Below are positions 5,019 through 46,004 of a DNA stretch of 64,000 bases, one piece after another. Origin of the DNA: a virus. Below the pieces are notes generated by a model. The model saw nothing but the letters and a program-made list of their open reading frames with translations, was not told the origin of the DNA and ran no database searches. The position numbers and the translations under genes are program-made. Each line of letters starts with the position of its first letter. Within the stretch, counting starts at the first letter, position 1. Location of the stretch: IMG/VR virus record IMGVR_UViG_3300035665_003403, positions 32,001-96,000 of that record; one strand, written 5' to 3'.

Positions 5019-7469
5019 TTAATATGGATTAGGTGATAATTTACCTAAATTTAAATTTTTGCTTACTTGTTGTGAAATTAACCTTGTCATTTCTGAAATG
5101 AAATTTTGGTCTTTTGTTAAATCTAAATTATTTATTCTACCGTTAGGTGTATTTAAATTGATAGTACCAGCAAATTCAATTTTGATTGGTTCAATAGTGT
5201 ATTTAACATTATTTTTATTCTTTCCTTTCAATGATTTATCAATAAAACCACTATTTTTCATAGCTAATAAATCATCTTTGTTATCAATAGGATTTATCCT
5301 ACCATCTTGTATAATTGCTCTACCTTTACTAAAATTATTACTCAATGGTGATTTGATAACACCATCATGCATTGGGGTACCCATATAATCACCAATCATC
5401 TTACCCCCAGCTGAACCCAATCCACTTCCAACCATAGCACCCATTGGTCCACCAACCAATGCACCAATAACCCCACCAGCAATTGTACCGATAAGCGAAC
5501 CCATATCTCCACTTGAATTATTTGTGGTATTTACACCAATACTTTTCATAGCTTCAGTACCTAAATTACCAAGACCAAACCCAACCGCACCACCAATTGC
5601 AGTAGCACCAATACCTTTTAATAACATTTTACCAATACCAGCAAGTCCAGTACTCATCATACCTTGAAAGGTTTTTAAAAATGAACCACCAGCAGCACCA
5701 GCATTGAATCCCTTGGCTAAGATGAAACCATTCATCAACCATTGTGCTTTATCAAACAAGAATTCACCAGCTTTCAATAATCCGTACATAATTCCAGTTT
5801 TTATTGGATTATCAAGTATGAAACCACCTACAGTTGTAACTACTTTTCCAACTAAACTAGCAAATTCACCTATTTTATCAATCCATTTTTCATTTCTAAT
5901 TCTTTCTACTAAATCTTTAACTTTAGGCATCAAGTCTCTATTTAACCCTTCAATCAAAGGTAACATTGCCGTCTTAAATAGCGTTATAGTGTTGTTTAAG
6001 GCATCATCGAAGGTTTGGTTAGACTTTGCCATCTCTTCTAAGTTTGCTTTCTCTTCAGCTAATATTTTTAATTGAGCTATATCTTGGTTAGATAGTTCAG
6101 ATACCAATTTCTTGATTACTTTTCCATCTTTCATTGAAAATGCTATTTCAGCTTTTCCATTTTTACCAATAGTTGCTGTATTTTCAATAAATTCTTTTAC
6201 ATCATCCTTTACAGATAGTTTTATTTGTGAATCAATGTTAGCGAACTTAGCCGCATTCTTAGCTGATTTAACCAAATCCTCAAATGCAACACCAGTTTGT
6301 TCAGCAACATTCCTTAATATCTGCATATTCAATGAACTAATATCAAACTCACCAGTTTCCTTATTCAACTTAGCAGTACCCTTAGTAGCATTAACAACAC
6401 TCTTCAATAAACCATCCATATCATTCCTTGCCATATACATCAATTTGAATGGGTCACCCAATTTAGACCATTCCCCACCCAATACCTGTAATTGAGCCGA
6501 CATATCAATAGCACCTTCAATATTGAATAATTTATCAGCCATACCACTAACAGTATCCATTTGAATACCCATCTTGGTTACAGTTGAAGCCATCTCAGCT
6601 AAACCCTTGGTTCCATTCTTGAAGTTATACTTGTTAATAAGCTTAAACCCTGATTGTATGTTTTTGACCGTTTTTGATGCGTTTAAGCCTAGTTTGTGTG
6701 TTTTATCTAACGATTCCTCAACGAAGTCCCTAACACGCTCTGTAGCGAAGCCTATTGTCTCCATTTCAGAAGCCATCTCAGCAGCACCTTCAGCACCCAA
6801 GATAGTCCCTTTGGCTAATTGAGCCATTGCTTTATGAGATTGTTCAGTAAAAACAACGTTTCTACCCAAAGAATCCGAATAAGAAGCTTGCATCTTAGCC
6901 AAATCCTCAACCCCAACACCATAATCTAATGTAGAATATTCAGCAGCTTTTATAATAGCATCTCTAAACCCATTTGTTTGTCTAACCAACACACCCATTT
7001 CAAGGGCTGCGTTTTTCATAGATTTATCCATTTCGAATAAACCACTAGATTTTATTTGACCATAACTACTTTTGATTAACCCAGGCAAAGCAGCAAATCC
7101 TTTTACCAAGTTGACACCCAACTGAGCTATAACAATCCTACCCTTGTTTACAGACTTAACAGCATCACCAATCAAATCACGTTGAAGTTCTAATTGTTTT
7201 GTTTGTTTTTTTAACTCATTTAGTTTTGCGTTTTCATTATCAATATCATCTTGAGTTATATTATTTTGACCAACTATCATGGCTGATATGTCAGCCACCA
7301 TTTTCTTTTCAATTTCGGTCAAACGATTTATTTCCTCGTTTGTTTTTTTTAAATCTTTGATAGCATCAACGTAAGACTTAGCACTAGAACCAATCTGTGC
7401 TTGTAACTCTGCCATTTTTTTTAATTCTCTGACAGCTTCTTTTATTTCTTTTGGTGTTAATGCAGCCAT
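5019..7469 (-). CDS. Tail tape measure protein
   Basis: 816 aa, helical and Ala/Lys/Met-rich, with Gly-rich hydrophobic C-terminal segments (GGVIGALVGGPMGAMVG); sits between chaperones and baseplate genes. Confidence 0.8.
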   Translation of the reverse strand: MAALTPKEIKEAVRELKKMAELQAQIGSSAKSYVDAIKDLKKTNEEINRLTEIEKKMVADISAMIVGQNNITQDDIDNENAKLNELKKQTKQLELQRDLIGDAVKSVNKGRIVIAQLGVNLVKGFAALPGLIKSSYGQIKSSGLFEMDKSMKNAALEMGVLVRQTNGFRDAIIKAAEYSTLDYGVGVEDLAKMQASYSDSLGRNVVFTEQSHKAMAQLAKGTILGAEGAAEMASEMETIGFATERVRDFVEESLDKTHKLGLNASKTVKNIQSGFKLINKYNFKNGTKGLAEMASTVTKMGIQMDTVSGMADKLFNIEGAIDMSAQLQVLGGEWSKLGDPFKLMYMARNDMDGLLKSVVNATKGTAKLNKETGEFDISSLNMQILRNVAEQTGVAFEDLVKSAKNAAKFANIDSQIKLSVKDDVKEFIENTATIGKNGKAEIAFSMKDGKVIKKLVSELSNQDIAQLKILAEEKANLEEMAKSNQTFDDALNNTITLFKTAMLPLIEGLNRDLMPKVKDLVERIRNEKWIDKIGEFASLVGKVVTTVGGFILDNPIKTGIMYGLLKAGEFLFDKAQWLMNGFILAKGFNAGAAGGSFLKTFQGMMSTGLAGIGKMLLKGIGATAIGGAVGFGLGNLGTEAMKSIGVNTTNNSSGDMGSLIGTIAGGVIGALVGGPMGAMVGSGLGSAGGKMIGDYMGTPMHDGVIKSPLSNNFSKGRAIIQDGRINPIDNKDDLLAMKNSGFIDKSLKGKNKNNVKYTIEPIKIEFAGTINLNTPNGRINNLDLTKDQNFISEMTRLISQQVSKNLNLGKLSPNPY

Positions 7470-11593: not shown

Positions 11594-12469
11594 TTAATTT
11601 AATAATTCTCGTTTTAACTCATTAATTACCCACTCAGTATTGTTATTTATATCTGACTCCCAAAATCTTAATAACTTAATATCGTTTTCTTCAGCTAATA
11701 AATTTTTTCGTATATCATTACCAACTGTTTTTATTTGTATTGGAAATGTTGGTATTTTGTGTTTTGTATTAGGATTACAATGATGGAAATCACCATCAAC
11801 CTCAATTAGTACATTATTTTTAATAATTAAAAAATCAAAAATAGCGTTACTTAATTGATGTTGGTATTTAAACTCGATATTTAAATCAACTAATATTTGT
11901 TCGAATCTTTCTTCCAATTTAGTTTTACTATTCCTGTAATTATTTTTAATTAATCTACTTATTAATCTTTCTGATTGTTTATTTCTTTCATCTACCTTCT
12001 CCCAACGCAATTTACTGAATTGTTTAATTTTAGCTATATGTTCATCACTCTTAGGAACACCACTTAATGCTTTTGATATGTTCTTACCACGCTCTGGGTT
12101 AGCCATAATTTTATTAATATTATCTCTAACCCTATCATCATCCATTGTTAATCCTTTATTCCAAACATTTAATTCACCATTTTCATGCATCTTTTTTTGA
12201 GTCTCATGTGATTTTCTTATAGCTTCTGGATTATGCCCCCAATTATTATTAACCCTAGATGCATGACCACGTACATAATCAACAAATCCTTTCTCAATAG
12301 ATAAAAAATTAGTTTTTTCACCACACCCACACTTGCACGTTGGTTGAACACCATCTAACTTATAGTCAATATATGTTTGCTCAGCACTAACTTTGTGCTT
12401 CTGAACACGATGTCTTCTTAATCCATCCAGTGTTTCAAATTCTCTATCACATTCTTTACATTTAAACAT
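11594..12469 (-). CDS. Putative homing endonuclease (C2H2 zinc finger, NUMOD3-like repeats, DUF559/Vsr-like nuclease)
   Basis: CKECDREF..LDGLRRHRVQKH; CKCGCGE; WNKGLT; KSDEHIAKI; FDFLI...LIEVDGDFHH...LLRFWESDI. Confidence 0.75.
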   Translation of the reverse strand: MFKCKECDREFETLDGLRRHRVQKHKVSAEQTYIDYKLDGVQPTCKCGCGEKTNFLSIEKGFVDYVRGHASRVNNNWGHNPEAIRKSHETQKKMHENGELNVWNKGLTMDDDRVRDNINKIMANPERGKNISKALSGVPKSDEHIAKIKQFSKLRWEKVDERNKQSERLISRLIKNNYRNSKTKLEERFEQILVDLNIEFKYQHQLSNAIFDFLIIKNNVLIEVDGDFHHCNPNTKHKIPTFPIQIKTVGNDIRKNLLAEENDIKLLRFWESDINNNTEWVINELKRELLN

Positions 12470-13168: not shown

Positions 13169-14812
13169 ATGAATAAAGCTAATGAATTTATAAAAAAAGC
13201 TATTAAAAAATTTGGTGATAGGTATGATTATTCAGAAATGCAATATATTTCATCAATAGAAAAGATTAATATTAGATGCAATAAACATAATATCATTTTC
13301 AATCAACTACCTTCAGCACATTTACGTGGTCAGGTGGGATGTCCTGTATGTAAAAACAGAATAACTACAACAGAAGAATTAATAAGCAAAGCGAAAGAAA
13401 TTCATGGTGATAGATATGATTATTCCAATACAAAATATGTTGATTCAAAAACAAAGATTAAAATTATATGCAAAGAGCATGGTGAATATGAACAATACCC
13501 AAATAATCATCTGATAAATAATTGTCCTAAGTGTGTTATTAAAGCTAACGCAATTGGTAGGACATTAAATAGCCAATCATTCATCAATAAATCAATTTTA
13601 AAGCATGGTGATAAGTATGATTATAGCTTGGTTGATTACATTGATTCTAAGAGCAAGGTTAAGATTATATGCAAAGAGCATGGTGAATTTGAGCAAATAG
13701 CTAGTTCACATATTAGAGGCAAGGGGTGTGAACTATGTGGTATAGAATCCAGGAATTCAATGAGTAGACATACAAAAGAAATGTTTATCAGTAAGGCTAA
13801 TATAATCCACAATAACAAATATAGTTATGATTCACTTGTTTATAAAAATGGTGTATCCAAAGTACTTATAACTTGTAAAAAACATGGTGAATTTGAACAA
13901 TATGCTTATGACCATTTAACTGGTCATGGTTGTAGTAAATGTAGTTCATCTGTATCAAAACAAGAATTGGAATTAATTGAATTTATAAGTAGTTTAGGGT
14001 TAAAGGTAAAAACTAGAGATAAATCAATCATAAAGCCGATGGAATTGGATATATTTATTCCATCACATAATATCGCAATCGAATTCAATGGGTTATATTG
14101 GCATAATGAATTATTCTTGGATAAGAATTATCATTTGAATAAAACAATTCAATGTGAAGAAAACGGGATAAAGCTTATACATATATTTGAAGATGAGTGG
14201 GAGTTTAAAAAAGATATTGTTAAATCAAGGCTTAAGAATATACTTGGATTGACTGAAAATAAGATATTTGGTAGGAAATGTGAGGTAAGAATTGTTTCAC
14301 AAAAAGATGGTGAAATATTTTTAAATAACAATCATTTGCAAGGCAATGTAAATTCAAGTGTTAGGCTTGGATTATATTATGATGATGAATTGGTATCTTT
14401 GATGTGTTTTAACAAACCAAGATTAGGGGTTGGAATTGGTTATGATGGGCATGAACTTAGTAGGTTTTGTAACAAATTAGATATAAATGTTATTGGTGGT
14501 GCTTCTAAGTTATTATCTCATTTCATAAAAGATAATTCACCAAATAAGATTATTAGTTATGCTGATATGAGGTGGAGTACTGGTGATTTATATGATACCT
14601 TAGGTTTCATAGAGTCACATAAAAATAAGCCAAATTATTGGTATGTAGTTGGAAAACAACGTAAACATAGATTTGGGTTTAGAAAAGAAATTCTCAAGAA
14701 AAATGGTTTCGATACCACCAATAAAACTGAACATGAAATTATGCTTGAAAGGAAGATGTACAGGATATATGATTGTGGAACTATAACATATAGTAAATCA
14801 TTTGTTGATTAA
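13169..14812 (+). CDS. Hef-like homing endonuclease with four Zn-ribbon (DUF723/CapR-like) repeats
   Basis: Four copies of (H)GDxYDYS..Y....K..I.C..HG.F.Q....H..G.GC..C, then ELDIFIP...IAIEFNGLYWH and ELSRFC...VIGGASKLL...ISYADMRWS; opposite strand to the tail operon. Confidence 0.75.
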   Translation: MNKANEFIKKAIKKFGDRYDYSEMQYISSIEKINIRCNKHNIIFNQLPSAHLRGQVGCPVCKNRITTTEELISKAKEIHGDRYDYSNTKYVDSKTKIKIICKEHGEYEQYPNNHLINNCPKCVIKANAIGRTLNSQSFINKSILKHGDKYDYSLVDYIDSKSKVKIICKEHGEFEQIASSHIRGKGCELCGIESRNSMSRHTKEMFISKANIIHNNKYSYDSLVYKNGVSKVLITCKKHGEFEQYAYDHLTGHGCSKCSSSVSKQELELIEFISSLGLKVKTRDKSIIKPMELDIFIPSHNIAIEFNGLYWHNELFLDKNYHLNKTIQCEENGIKLIHIFEDEWEFKKDIVKSRLKNILGLTENKIFGRKCEVRIVSQKDGEIFLNNNHLQGNVNSSVRLGLYYDDELVSLMCFNKPRLGVGIGYDGHELSRFCNKLDINVIGGASKLLSHFIKDNSPNKIISYADMRWSTGDLYDTLGFIESHKNKPNYWYVVGKQRKHRFGFRKEILKKNGFDTTNKTEHEIMLERKMYRIYDCGTITYSKSFVD

Positions 14813-30916: not shown

Positions 30917-32734
30917 TTGATACAATTAAATGATATAAAATCAAAGAAAGCAATTATTCTACTATCTAATTATAGTGGGATAAACCCATATATCTTACAA
31001 TTAAAGAATAAATTAGCTACTAATGGTAAGTTACTATTAACCGAAAATCAAACCAACTATATTATCGAAAATGATAAAACTCAACCAATATTTATAAACA
31101 AAATATTATCTATAACACCATTTTTGGGGGAATCACTTAAAAAAGAGTTTGAATTAAGCTTTACCCCAGAAAAATTATTAGCCGAATACATATTAGCTGA
31201 CAACAATAAAACAATCCACATTTACGGAAAACTAACCAAGAATCAAAAAACATCAACAATGTTTTTCATTCCAAAAAATCAGTTGATAACTGACCCTTAT
31301 TTTGATGAAATTGATGTTGATGTTGATTTTGAAAAATATGATAATATTTTAGCCAAATATGGTAAAAATTTATTCGAACACCAAAAATCTGGTATTAAAT
31401 TCTTGTTAGGTAGAAAAGGAGCTATCTTAGCTGACGAAATGGGACTCGCAAAAACGGCCCAATCAATAATATCAGCACTTGAAAGTGGTTGTAAAAAAAT
31501 ATTAGTTATTTGTCCAGCATCAGTAAAGATAAATTGGAAAAGGGAAATTGAAATTTTCGATAAAAATGTATCAATAGTTGATGGTAATCGTTGGGTTGAT
31601 AATAAATTTACGATTGTAAATTTTGATATACTTAAAAATTTCCACACTATTGAAGATAAAAAAATTGAATTTCAAATTTTAAAAAGAACAATTCTTGATA
31701 CAAAATTTGATGCTATTATTATTGATGAAGCACATTATTTAAAAGATAGCAACACAATTAGAGGTGGTATTGTTAATGATTTGATTAAACTAAACGATTT
31801 TAAAAGAATTTGGTTGTTAACTGGAACCCCAGTAGCCAACAGACCAATAGATTTTTTTAATTTACTTAAGATGATTAAATCACCATTAGGTGATAATTGG
31901 ATGTTTTTTTCTAAGCGTTATTGTGATGCTAAAAAAATGTATAGAACCATGAAAAATGGTAAAAAGAAACAGTTATGGATTAATAGCGGAGCCTCAAACT
32001 TAGATGAATTACATAATAAAACTAAAAATATTATGTTAAGAAGGTTAAAGAGTGAAGTATTGGATATGCCAGAAAAATTAATTATTCCACAATACCATGA
32101 ATTATCACCAACACAATGGATTGAATATGATGGGTTATGGGAGGATTATTTGGTTGAACGTAAAAAGAAAGGAAAAAGAGGTAACTTAGATAAAGATTTA
32201 TTGGAGTTAATATTGCTTAGAAAATTTGTAGCTATGGAGATGATACCAAATACAATTGAATTGGTTGATGATTTGATTCTTGAAGATAAGAAAGTTATTA
32301 TCTTTACCACTTTTACTGAAGAATTAAATGAACTAAAGAATCATTTCGGTAAAAAATGTGTAACCCATAATGGCCCAATGTCAACAAAAGATAAGCAAAA
32401 AAGTGTCGATGAATTCCAAAATAACCCAAATATTAAGGTTTTTATTGGAAACGTTATTTCTGCTGGTGTTGGAATCACACTTACAGCAGCTAATGTTGTC
32501 GTGTTCAATAGCTATGCTTGGGTACCAGGAATCAACAACCAATGTGAAGATAGAAGCCACCGATTGGGGCAAAAAAGTGATGTACTTGTCTACTACCAAT
32601 TATTCGAAAACAGCGTTTCAGTTAGAATTTGGGAAACACTTAAGAGCAAACAATCAATCATAGACCAAATTATGGTTGGCAATGAAGAAACAATAACAGA
32701 TAAAATAATTGAAATGATATATGAACAGAGTTAG
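30917..32734 (+). CDS. SNF2-family helicase/ATPase
   Basis: LADEMGLAKT (motif I), IIDEAH (motif II), LLTGTP, AGVGITLTAA, QCEDRSHRLGQ. Confidence 0.93.
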   Translation: MIQLNDIKSKKAIILLSNYSGINPYILQLKNKLATNGKLLLTENQTNYIIENDKTQPIFINKILSITPFLGESLKKEFELSFTPEKLLAEYILADNNKTIHIYGKLTKNQKTSTMFFIPKNQLITDPYFDEIDVDVDFEKYDNILAKYGKNLFEHQKSGIKFLLGRKGAILADEMGLAKTAQSIISALESGCKKILVICPASVKINWKREIEIFDKNVSIVDGNRWVDNKFTIVNFDILKNFHTIEDKKIEFQILKRTILDTKFDAIIIDEAHYLKDSNTIRGGIVNDLIKLNDFKRIWLLTGTPVANRPIDFFNLLKMIKSPLGDNWMFFSKRYCDAKKMYRTMKNGKKKQLWINSGASNLDELHNKTKNIMLRRLKSEVLDMPEKLIIPQYHELSPTQWIEYDGLWEDYLVERKKKGKRGNLDKDLLELILLRKFVAMEMIPNTIELVDDLILEDKKVIIFTTFTEELNELKNHFGKKCVTHNGPMSTKDKQKSVDEFQNNPNIKVFIGNVISAGVGITLTAANVVVFNSYAWVPGINNQCEDRSHRLGQKSDVLVYYQLFENSVSVRIWETLKSKQSIIDQIMVGNEETITDKIIEMIYEQS

Positions 32735-43799: not shown

Positions 43800-44343
43800 T
43801 CATATATTAAGAGCCTCTAAGAAGGTAATGGATAAAGTTGAAACAGGTGACTTTACACCAACAGGAATCAATGCAGAATCACTGGTAACTCATGGTGAAC
43901 TTCTATCCAATTTACCAAGCAATGCACCAATAAGAACAACAAAAGCTAGTCTTTCTGAAGTAGATGAAAGAAATGCTTTGGTTAATGACAAAAACTTAAT
44001 TATGAATTCTAATTTACCAGATGTAGTGAAAAAATATATGATTGATAAACCAATTAATGTTCATGCACCAAAAAGTAAAACTAGTTTCACAAGAGAAGAT
44101 ATATTAGGTAGTGATGCCGATGAAAAACCAATGGGTATACCAAAAATCACAAATATAAAACCCAAAGCAATTACCGAAAACTACAACCCAAATATGATTA
44201 CAATCGATAAAAACGAATTGAAATCATATATACAAGAAGAAATGATTAATTCTTTATTGAAAGAAAGAGATAAGAAATTAATCGATGAAACTATCAAACG
44301 TACAATCACTACCTTGATAAAAGAAGGAAAAATGAAACGATAA
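43762..44343 (+). CDS. Hypothetical protein
   Basis: 193 aa; NSNLPDVVKKYMIDKPI. Confidence 0.6.
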   Translation: MENQPSADLNRLSHILRASKKVMDKVETGDFTPTGINAESLVTHGELLSNLPSNAPIRTTKASLSEVDERNALVNDKNLIMNSNLPDVVKKYMIDKPINVHAPKSKTSFTREDILGSDADEKPMGIPKITNIKPKAITENYNPNMITIDKNELKSYIQEEMINSLLKERDKKLIDETIKRTITTLIKEGKMKR

Positions 44344-44345
44344 TT

Positions 44346-44372
44346 AAAACACCCATTTGGGTGTTTTTTTTT
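44346..44372 (+). terminator. Intrinsic terminator
   Basis: AAACACCC-ATTT-GGGTGTTT followed by a U-run. Confidence 0.85.
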
Positions 44373-44475
44373 ATCTAAACTTTACTTAGATAAAAAATAT
44401 GATTATAATTGTTTAGTAATTTGGGAATCAGATTATAAAAAAATAAAGATAAAATAATAAAATTAATTAAAGATT

Positions 44476-45738
44476 ATGGAGAACCAACAAAATATGGCCC
44501 CAGACAGTCGTAAATTTCGCATTCTTGTAGTGCCTAGCGACAGGTCTGGGGTCAGCTGAAGCTTTTTTAGAAGTACAATACCTCATATGTATCTTGAAGA
44601 AAAATATCCTGACTTATTTTCAATAGATATTGATTACGAACCAGACCTTTCAAACGATAATTTCTTAAAGCAATATGATTTGATTCATTATCATAGAACA
44701 TTAGGTTCTTATGAAACTATGGAAGATACTCTAAGGAGATTAAAATCATTTAATATCCCATCAATTATGGATATTGATGACCATTGGGCACCTGGCCAAC
44801 ATCACCCAGCATATTTAGTTATCAAGAATAATCAATTAGATAAGAAGATATTGAATAATGTCAAGTTGGCTGATAACATCACCACAACAACACCATTGTT
44901 TGCTGCTGAGATTAGCAAGGTAAATAAGAATGTATTCGTGTTACCCAATGCGATTAATCAAAATGAATCTCAGTTTATTCCATCACCAGAACAATCCAAT
45001 AGAATTAGATTTGGGTTCATTGGTGGAAGTTCCCATTTGCATGACCTAAAAATATTAAATGGTCTTGTAAATAAGCTTAAATCAGAAGGTTACATGGATA
45101 AAATACAGTTTGTATTGTGTGGTTATGATTTAAGAGGCAACATGACTGTTATAGATGAGAAGACTGGAACACAAACCCAACGTCCAATTAAACCAACTGA
45201 AAGTGTTTGGTACGAATACGAAAAAATATTCACTGACAATTATTCAACTGTAAGTCCAGAGTACAAAGAGTTTTTACTTAAATTCAAAAATGAGGAATAC
45301 CCTAACGTTGCTAACGAACCTTATAGAAGAGTTTGGACTAAGCCAATTACATCATATGCTACTGGTTATAATTTATTTGATGTTTCATTGGTACCATTAG
45401 AAGAAAATAATTTTAATTATGTAAAATCTCAATTAAAATGTGTTGAAGCTGGATTTCATAAAAAAGCTATAGTTGCTCAAAATTATGGTCCATATACAAT
45501 TGATTTAAAAAACATAATTATGTTTGGTGGTGAAATTGATAAAACTGGTAATGCGATATTGATTGATACCAAGAAAAACCATAAAGATTGGTTTACGACA
45601 ATAAAGAAATTAGTCAATAATCCAGAATTGATTAAGATTATGGGTGAAAATCTACATAAAGACATTACATCTAAATATTCTTTAGATGCTGTATCAGAAA
45701 GTAGAAAAGACTTATATTTAAACCTTATTAACAAATGA
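44476..45738 (+). CDS. GT-B (GT4-like) glycosyltransferase with an in-frame TGA at 44557-44559 (recoded, or a pseudogene)
   Basis: ATG 44476 reads MENQQNMAPDSRKFRILVVPSDRSGVS*SFFRSTIPH, in frame with the track ORF at 44587; DIDDHW, GFIGGSSHLHDL, PLEENNFNYVKSQLKCVEAG. Confidence 0.75.
44495..44554 (+). other. GC-rich three-tier RNA stem-loop directly 5' of the in-frame stop
   Basis: UGGCCCCAGAC/GUCUGGGGUCA (11 bp), GUCGU/GCGAC and GCAUU/AGUGC. Confidence 0.7.
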
Positions 45739-46004
45739 GAATATCACTTTTATTATTTCTATTTTTAATCCTTATGGGTTGTGGTGAAAAAGAATCTGAA
45801 AAACATGATAGGATTATGAGTGAATTGGTTTGCCCAGTAATTCTAATAGGCAAGACAGATAAAGCATCAGTATTACCATCAATTGTTGTTTTAGATGGTG
45901 ATGGTAGAGTTAAAACAATAAGCCAAGGTGCTGGTGATGGATATAAAATGCCATCAGCTATATCTCAAAGTAGAGAAATTGGTGATACTTTAAAAAATAA
46001 TTAG
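45735..46004 (+). CDS. Lipoprotein
   Basis: Signal peptide MRISLLLFLFLILMG-C (lipobox). Confidence 0.7.
   Translation: MRISLLLFLFLILMGCGEKESEKHDRIMSELVCPVILIGKTDKASVLPSIVVLDGDGRVKTISQGAGDGYKMPSAISQSREIGDTLKNN

Follow-up and report, generated by a model that had tools for sequence, protein, structure and literature searches.

A short ribosomal hop behind a conserved RNA hairpin probably rescues a phage glycosyltransferase gene interrupted by a homing-endonuclease cassette

The window analysed here, a 64,000-nucleotide (nt) stretch of a viral genome (IMG/VR record IMGVR_UViG_3300035665_003403, positions 32,001 to 96,000), carries at positions 44476-45738 of its plus strand a glycosyltransferase (GT) reading frame that is broken by one UGA. 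Based on comparison with related sequences, we propose that 44476-45738 is one GT-B glycosyltransferase gene in which ribosomes would hop over a coding gap of 6 nt, a reading to which we assign a probability of roughly 0.78. Ribosomes would start at AUG 44476, translate 27 codons and stall with peptidyl-tRNA-Ser on the take-off codon AGC (44554-44556) and UGA (44557-44559) in the A site. A fraction of them would slide 6 nt instead of terminating, the same tRNA would re-pair with the landing codon AGC (Ser, 44560-44562), and decoding would resume at UUU 44563 to give the product ...PSDRSGVS-FFRSTIPH.... An N-terminal extension of about 10 residues, MENQQNMAPDSRKF, precedes the beta1 strand and Gly loop, RILVVPSDRSGVS, in the 5′ part of the gene (44476-44556), which includes the start codon and is a replacement GT 5′ end brought by a mobile cassette. 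The UGA is the entire untranslated spacer of this allele, and the rest of the GT-B (GT4-like) open reading frame (ORF) runs from 44563 to its own stop, TGA 45736-45738.

The annotated GT ORF is 44587-45738 (383 amino acids, aa), in frame with ATG 44476, and the 37-codon extension from this ATG contains only one stop, TGA 44557-44559. The same reading, with a single UGA between AGC codons, had been given in a preliminary description made from the letters of the window alone, which also called for confirmation of the stop and took UGA for an ordinary stop elsewhere; both points were borne out. The sequence was identical, TGA included, in three other assemblies (L002, L003 and L004), and three independent lake-water runs yielded contigs that span the TGA, with 0 differences and free of indels; because of this agreement, the TGA is not an assembly error. 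Metagenomes containing the window's sequence were all from lake water. UGA is an ordinary stop in this genome (G000; 148,824 bp, 29.4% GC), in which TGA terminates 24 of 130 long ORFs, the GT included. No tRNA and no suppressor tRNA were detected by ARAGORN in the window or in the whole 148.8-kb genome.

A protein search with the GT returned thousands of relatives, and PHROG 7162 (glycosyltransferase) matched it at 4e-40; a Pfam search of the GT gave no family. More than 100 homologues read ...VLVVPSDR[TS]GV[SG][YF][FY]RS without extra residues at the gap site, their N-termini following the pattern M(K)KIKVLVVPSDRTGV[S/G][Y/F][F/Y]RS..PH. Two of them, P0002 and P0126, which are 97-99% identical to the window GT, read ...SDRSGVSFFRSTIPHMYLEE, i.e. 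an uninterrupted GVSFFRS. Relative to the homologues, the window allele has exactly 6 extra bases, and a hop from AGC to AGC predicts GVS-FFRSTIPH, which is the sequence of P0002 and P0126 with no residue added. The preliminary description had proposed that hopping yields GVS-FFRS, in keeping with an N-terminal motif that intact homologues should read as GVS[Y/F]FR; the homologues support this, as do the 19 gap configurations and the covarying stems described below. A more distant GT homologue (34% identical), located in a 735-kb uncultured megaphage (L001, LR756501.1:540601-541803), also has the N-terminal motif uninterrupted.

In the AF2 model of the intact allele P0126 (pLDDT 81, pTM 0.80), residues 4-9 form strand beta1, residues 10-15 the Gly loop and residues 16-31 helix alpha1. 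The gap position corresponds to the start of alpha1, and ATG 44587 corresponds to M26 of P0126, in the middle of the same helix. A Foldseek search with this model matched GlgM, MshA, BshA, PimA and PglA with E = 1e-14 to 1e-10. As modelled, the GT is a GT4-like enzyme of the GT-B fold, with two Rossmann-like domains and the beta1/Gly loop/alpha1 unit at its N-terminus; the first Rossmann strand and loop thus fall in the upstream extension, where the preliminary description had placed them.

Interrupted alleles were gathered through truncated protein calls, through DNA patterns matching the hairpin's 3′ arm, through a search with the adjacent endonuclease that takes no account of the gap, and through a search with the GT that takes no account of anything else; two broad patterns applied to viral contigs gave mostly random matches among those listed and were used only where their matches intersected. 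The alleles studied in detail have 21 distinct cassette 5′ regions, and the GT-based search added three alleles. The unbiased GT sample had 79 resolvable loci, of which 6 were interrupted. Including the three added alleles, 19 gap configurations were found, all at the same codon, with hop lengths of 5, 6, 7, 8, 9, 10 and 13 nt and with all three frame relations present. They were 1) AGT-TG-AGC for 5 nt, 2) AGC TGA AGC, GGC TGA GGT, GGT TAA GGC, GGT TAA GGT and GGT TGA GGA for 6 nt, 3) AGC TGA A AGC, AGC TGA T AGC and GGC TGA A GGT for 7 nt, 4) AGC TGA CA AGC/AGT, AGC TGA AA AGT, GGT TAA AT GGT and GGC TAA TT GGT for 8 nt, 5) AGC TGA CTA AGC for 9 nt, GGC TGA ATTA GGT for 10 nt and GGC TGA ATTTAAA GGA for 13 nt, and 6) the mismatched AGT TAA GGC and GGT TGA AC AGC.

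The take-off codon was directly followed by a stop in every configuration (UGA in 14, UAA in 5, a sense codon in 0). Take-off and landing codons specified the same amino acid in 17 of the 19 (Fisher p = 0.001, ignoring relatedness), as AGC/AGC, AGC/AGT, AGT/AGC, GGC/GGT, GGT/GGC, GGT/GGT, GGT/GGA or GGC/GGA, and the arrangement of a stop between matched codons, for which the preliminary description had suggested looking in relatives, is thus kept over gaps of 5-13 nt. Two of these 17 are GGY-to-GGA, in which the two codons are normally served by different tRNA-Gly. With re-pairing at the landing codon, every configuration yields GV[S/G]-x[F/Y]RS, whereas readthrough or a single frameshift does not achieve this. 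It was also noticed that in L257 (10287-12718), L262, L263, L267, L270 and L272 the interrupted GT continues into a second, fused domain (about 380 aa), so that the protein totals 770-780 aa; the window GT is single-domain, and the next ORF (45735-46004, 89 aa) is lipoprotein-like.

Immediately upstream of the take-off codon, and ending at it, lies a conserved RNA hairpin (44495-44554, plus strand). It consists of an outer stem (44496-44505 paired with 44544-44553, plus U44495-A44554), a middle stem (44507-44510 with 44538-44541) and an apical stem (44519-44523 with 44529-44533). A 131-nt segment folds at -36.6 kcal/mol (z = -2.6) and the 64 nt before the window take-off codon at -27.3 kcal/mol. 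The preliminary description had noted a three-tier hairpin of striking GC content and had asked whether its stems covary in relatives. GC content is indeed 45-48% at 44490-44579 versus 15-33% in the flanks (29% for the genome), and the outer and middle tiers are conserved and covary among the 21 alleles, whereas the apical tier, in which 59% of cells pair, is window-specific. All of the 21 distinct interrupted alleles had the hairpin, as against 0 of 66 uninterrupted ones. The minimum free energy of the 64 nt before the [S/G] codon ranged from -25 to -31.6 kcal/mol in the former and, in the same region, from -1.7 to -20 (mean -6.0) kcal/mol in the 66 distinct uninterrupted alleles, the two ranges not overlapping (U = 0, p = 6e-12).

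In the alignment of the 21 sequences (A2), 86% of the outer and middle stem cells pair, and in 7 of the 14 pairs both partners change. Covariation scored 0.251 as compared with 0.157 ± 0.014 for shuffled alignments, of which 0 of 500 reached it, and slid controls scored at most 0.10; RNAalifold independently predicted the outer and middle stems. G-U pairs are frequent in the alignment, and their being tolerated favours a structure in the sense-strand RNA. A search of the hairpin against Rfam (E up to 5) gave no match, and no SECIS-like element was found. All 21 interrupted alleles encode the N-terminal extension of about 10 residues, which is absent from uninterrupted alleles. The extension keeps a motif, xPxx[RK][RK], about 14-16 residues before the take-off codon; since these codons also make up the hairpin's 5′ arm, any selection on the peptide is not separable from selection on the RNA.

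The position of the hairpin suggests how it might act. Its 3′ arm covers the 16 nt immediately 5′ of the take-off codon. With that codon in the P site, the 3′ arm of the outer stem (-10 to -1) would lie inside the ribosome and the 3′ strand of the middle stem (-16 to -13) at the exit. Pairing might then begin in the apical part, outside the ribosome, and as the 10 bp of the outer stem zip up, the mRNA could be drawn forward over a length in the range of the observed hops. The hairpin is therefore, by its geometry, a likely stimulator of the hop. Pairing of exiting mRNA has been proposed as the driver of gene 60 bypassing in phage T4 (bioRxiv 10.1101/2024.12.09.627546). An SD-like (Shine-Dalgarno) role for the GGGGU 5′ of the take-off codon was also considered and dropped, an SD core being present upstream of 5 of 130 ORFs versus a 3% background. 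With their A-rich leaders, the genes suggest a host, Bacteroidota-like or other, that is independent of SD pairing.

An ORF of 291-309 aa was located directly upstream of most interrupted GTs, overlapping the GT start codon. Its NUMOD3 motif scores above the Pfam cut-off, its N-terminal region is helix-turn-helix-like, and it weakly resembles Vsr, MTES_1575 and DUF559 nucleases; on these grounds it is a putative NUMOD3/Vsr-like homing endonuclease. Intact endonuclease ORFs were present in L252, L253, L254, L257, L260, L262, L266, L269, L270, L279-281 and L286-291; shorter, more distant endonucleases (about 253 aa) precede uninterrupted GTs. In five lineages, the original GT 5′ end (M..VLVVPSDRTGV[SG][YF]) was found upstream of the endonuclease, broken right after those codons. 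Because the original ends break off after GV[SG][YF], the cassette, as read from these sequences, has three parts, namely a promoter region, the gene of the endonuclease, and a GT 5′ end that replaces the original one and includes hairpin, take-off codon, stop and spacer; its insertion point is exactly that of the gap. The window retains a remnant of about 110 nt of the 3′ end of the endonuclease gene (44374-44489, plus strand), the remainder being deleted; tblastn with the L257 endonuclease matched it over residues 260-298 with 57-59% identity (E = 0.006). A promoter-like TTTACT-17-TATAAT lies inside the remnant at 44381-44409. Two further endonuclease-like genes of the window, 11594-12469 (minus strand, 291 aa, with an N-terminal C2H2-like zinc finger) and 13169-14812 (plus strand, 547 aa, with internal repeats), are free-standing among structural genes and carry a Vsr-like core, ...EFNG.YWH... 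/ ...EVDGDFHH..., and one more weak endonuclease-like match is located outside the window at 108578-108868 of the genome.

Near-identical lake phages display three states of this locus: no cassette in L008 (533-1759) and L009, an endonuclease without the gap in L005 (1064-1828) and L006, and the remnant with hairpin and gap in the window. Upstream of the locus, a gene of 193 aa ends at 44343 and is followed by its intrinsic terminator (44346-44367, plus strand; a 9-bp stem, then a T run). The cassette-free L008 and L009 are identical to the window up to about 44388, the terminator marking the end of the shared sequence, and near-identical alleles differ from the window GT only in the first ~90 nt. 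The 81-nt GT 5′ region of the window has 51-58% nucleotide identity to L005 and L008, whose GT bodies are 97-99% identical, but 79-83% to L257 and L259, the GTs of which share no more than 34-63% identity with that of the window; the conflict between these values indicates that the GT 5′ end was acquired horizontally. The 12-nt sequence AAACTTTACTTA occurs in the window (44379-44391), in the native GT leader (L008, ~487-499) and in the 3′ part of the endonuclease gene (in L005 and, at ~6198-6211, in L012; codons NKLYL), and recombination between its copies would give the exact deletion of the window, in which they may thus have been instrumental. The hairpin was retained after endonuclease loss in the window, L007, L012 and L256. 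The distribution of the cassette is patchy among close relatives, and the cassette is mosaic relative to the GT. In L005 and L006, an intact endonuclease of 254 aa accompanies an uninterrupted GT (VVASDRSGVSFFRS), and how these avoid self-cutting without a gap is unexplained. The public call of the uninterrupted allele of L009 (562-1743, P0127) was made with TGA read as Trp and still starts at MYLEE; it passes the true stop into a spurious tail, ...WEYYFYYFYF, an annotation artefact.

A mobile cassette ends at the gap, which is its 3′ junction and was not selected for regulation; nothing suggests the translational control of a glycosylation pathway that the preliminary description had considered. 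Since the gap sits at the insertion and target site, and by analogy with MobA and gene 60, it most likely protects the cassette from its own nuclease by breaking the target site that would otherwise be regenerated, with the hop rescuing the GT.

Downstream of the gap, the ORFs of interrupted alleles are all intact (378-780 aa), except in one contig at 1.6x coverage. Among alleles sharing a gap type, the ratio of nonsynonymous to synonymous divergence (dN/dS) was 0.025-0.05 for L275, L277 and L306 (dS 0.13-0.28), 0.075 for L012 and L256 (dS 0.40) and 0.105 for L288 and L289 (dS 1.08). For the downstream ORFs as a whole, dN/dS is put at 0.03-0.13, also where the endonuclease gene beside them has reached a dS above 1. 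Endonuclease and GT diverged in parallel, with dS values of 1.4 versus 1.1, 1.41 versus 1.37 and 0.92 versus 0.78, respectively; as the two diverged equally, the gap is old in those lineages, which are not merely fresh invasions, and has persisted without decay of the GT. The 5′ end of the cassette retains the peptide VLVVPSDRTGV through synonymous change, including switches of serine codons from AGY to TCN.

These observations bear on three other explanations. The gap could be an inactivating scar left by the cassette in a dispensable GT, the ORFs being still intact because invasion was recent and the matched codons being an inherited target-site duplication. The 97-99% identity of the window GT to uninterrupted alleles does point to recent invasion, the cassette is clearly mobile and selfish, and both junctions carry a copy of the first 6-9 bases that begin with the [S/G] codon. 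We nevertheless regard a scar as unlikely, since adjacent endonucleases have diverged as far as the GTs (dS ~1 or more) while GT ORFs stayed intact at dN/dS ~0.1, take-off and landing codons switch together between Ser and Gly, the covarying hairpin outlasts the endonuclease, and the peptide encoded by the 5′ end of the cassette is conserved. Readthrough of the UGA in the window allele, by near-cognate Trp or Cys tRNA or by a suppressor, would keep the frame across a 6-nt gap, and low-level UGA readthrough is common in bacteria. Its product, GVS-X-S-FFRS, would contain two extra residues that no homologue has at this site. Moreover, the matched-codon configurations include ten out-of-frame gaps, as well as one 9-nt in-frame gap and one gap with two stops, all of which restore the consensus only by a hop; the genome lacks tRNA genes, the hairpin resembles neither a SECIS element nor an Rfam family, and the matched AGC codons are left unexplained. 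Readthrough is thus very unlikely.

Termination at the UGA followed by restart at ATG 44587, leaving either a split enzyme made of a 27-residue peptide and the body or an enzyme with a dispensable N-terminus, is in our judgement hardly credible. This ATG lies nine codons after the landing codon and is used by gene callers, and split genes beside homing endonucleases can work, as in T4 gp39/gp60 and Aeh1 NrdA (10.1101/2022.08.31.505936). The same ATG is, however, also present in uninterrupted alleles, and a start at M38 would, in the P0126 model, leave the Rossmann-like domain without beta1, the Gly loop and half of alpha1. Across relatives, the distance from the landing codon to the next in-frame start varies between 5 and 106 codons (as far as 53, 69 or 106 codons in some), so that a conserved restart is excluded. 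Two further candidates were considered and rejected: selenocysteine insertion or code reassignment, given the out-of-frame gaps in relatives, the use of TGA to end 24 of 130 ORFs, the lack of tRNA genes and the lack of an Rfam match, and +1/-1 frameshifting or transcriptional slippage, since the site lacks a slippery or homopolymeric run and the gap lengths cannot all be fitted by one shift.

Several points weigh against the hop. Synthetic short hops without stimulators are inefficient, at about 1%, and the action proposed for the hairpin is derived from geometry. With no SD use in the phage, SD signals like those of gene 60 or prfB are unlikely to help. Two configurations are mismatched between Ser and Gly, and GGY-to-GGA hops mismatch at the wobble position. 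The alleles share ancestry, and their counts are not independent events, so that the statistics given above overstate independence. In the window, the endonuclease is gone, which leaves the gap without its presumed function and possibly heading for loss or decay; and since the cassette is recent there, as judged from the identity of the GT to uninterrupted alleles, the intact ORF of the window itself proves nothing. Because the window allele is recent and has lost its endonuclease, the functional case rests on the relatives.

To our knowledge, bacteria and phages have a single well-studied natural bypass, that of T4 gene 60, beside which stand the mitochondrial byp elements. The gene 60 bypass is cited in PMC5009743 to Huang 1988, and the bypass insert of MobA prevents self-cleavage (bioRxiv 10.1101/2022.08.31.505936, Manning & Atkins). 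Like T4 gene 60/MobA, the GT cassette is a mobile element at one conserved site of a phage enzyme gene, brings a new N-terminal extension and carries an untranslated insert that starts with a stop between matched take-off and landing codons, and its insert outlasts endonuclease loss. The differences are that 1) the gap is 5-13 nt (6 nt in the window) as compared with ~50 nt in gene 60, and is thus too short to accommodate a take-off stem-loop or internal SD, 2) the target is a GT-B glycosyltransferase, whereas that of gene 60 is a topoisomerase, 3) the endonuclease combines a NUMOD3 motif with a Vsr/PD-(D/E)xK-like domain and is not MobA, 4) the take-off codon is AGY or GGY and not GGA, 5) the 5′ hairpin is strongly conserved and covarying, whereas the 5′ stem-loop of gene 60 is reported not to be conserved, and 6) the cassette replaces the 5′ end of the gene, whereas that of gene 60 splits the gene into two functional ORFs. 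There is no sequence similarity between the GT cassette and gene 60. The GT cassette is thus analogous to the gene 60/MobA cassette and not a member of that family.

In synthetic stop-hops, including +5 and +6 hops in Escherichia coli (Weiss 1987, as presented in PMC5009743), identical or synonymous codons flank the stop, 9 nt specify one amino acid and the same peptidyl-tRNA re-pairs downstream, as proposed here, where hops of +5 and +6 also occur. As described there, those hops were engineered and of low efficiency, whereas the GT family is natural and diversified and has a dedicated hairpin. The mitochondrial byp elements of Magnusiomyces capitatus, inserts of 27-55 nt cited in the same source, resemble the GT gaps in being many, short and natural, with matched codons and translational bypassing; neither a homing-endonuclease cassette nor a conserved 5′ hairpin is known to have been described for them. 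The +1 frameshift of prfB (encoding RF2) at CUU UGA shares with the GT site a stop in the A site and a G-rich element (here GGGGU) a few nt 5′ of the shift codon. However, gaps of 5-13 nt are beyond the reach of one +1 slip onto an overlapping codon, and pairing with the anti-SD sequence as in prfB is unlikely because the phage genes show no SD use. According to PMC5009743 (2016), no natural in-frame stop-hops were known, and short matched-codon counterparts had "long been presumed"; a 2022 survey of MobA elements termed its bypass cassette "unique" (bioRxiv 10.1101/2022.08.31.505936). Full-text literature searches revealed no paper describing the GT cassette.

Taken more widely, and with less assurance than for the window gene itself, we lean towards the view that the interrupted GTs represent a natural, diversified family of 5-13 nt hops, each combining an A-site stop, a matched landing codon and a zipping hairpin, which would operate in a host that does not use SD pairing, would be independent of gene 60 and would serve the self-protection of the cassette. 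For annotation, they are a warning, as gene callers truncate interrupted GTs (to 383 aa in the window) or would call them pseudogenes. The family would supply dozens of natural minimal-hop variants, in which the gap measures 5-13 nt, the take-off codon specifies Ser or Gly and the stop is UGA or UAA, and its strongly conserved 5′ hairpin makes the exiting-mRNA-pairing hypothesis of bypassing directly testable. If ribosomes hop as proposed, the GT cassettes indicate that recoding can be enlisted time and again by homing endonucleases as a means of disrupting the site they target.

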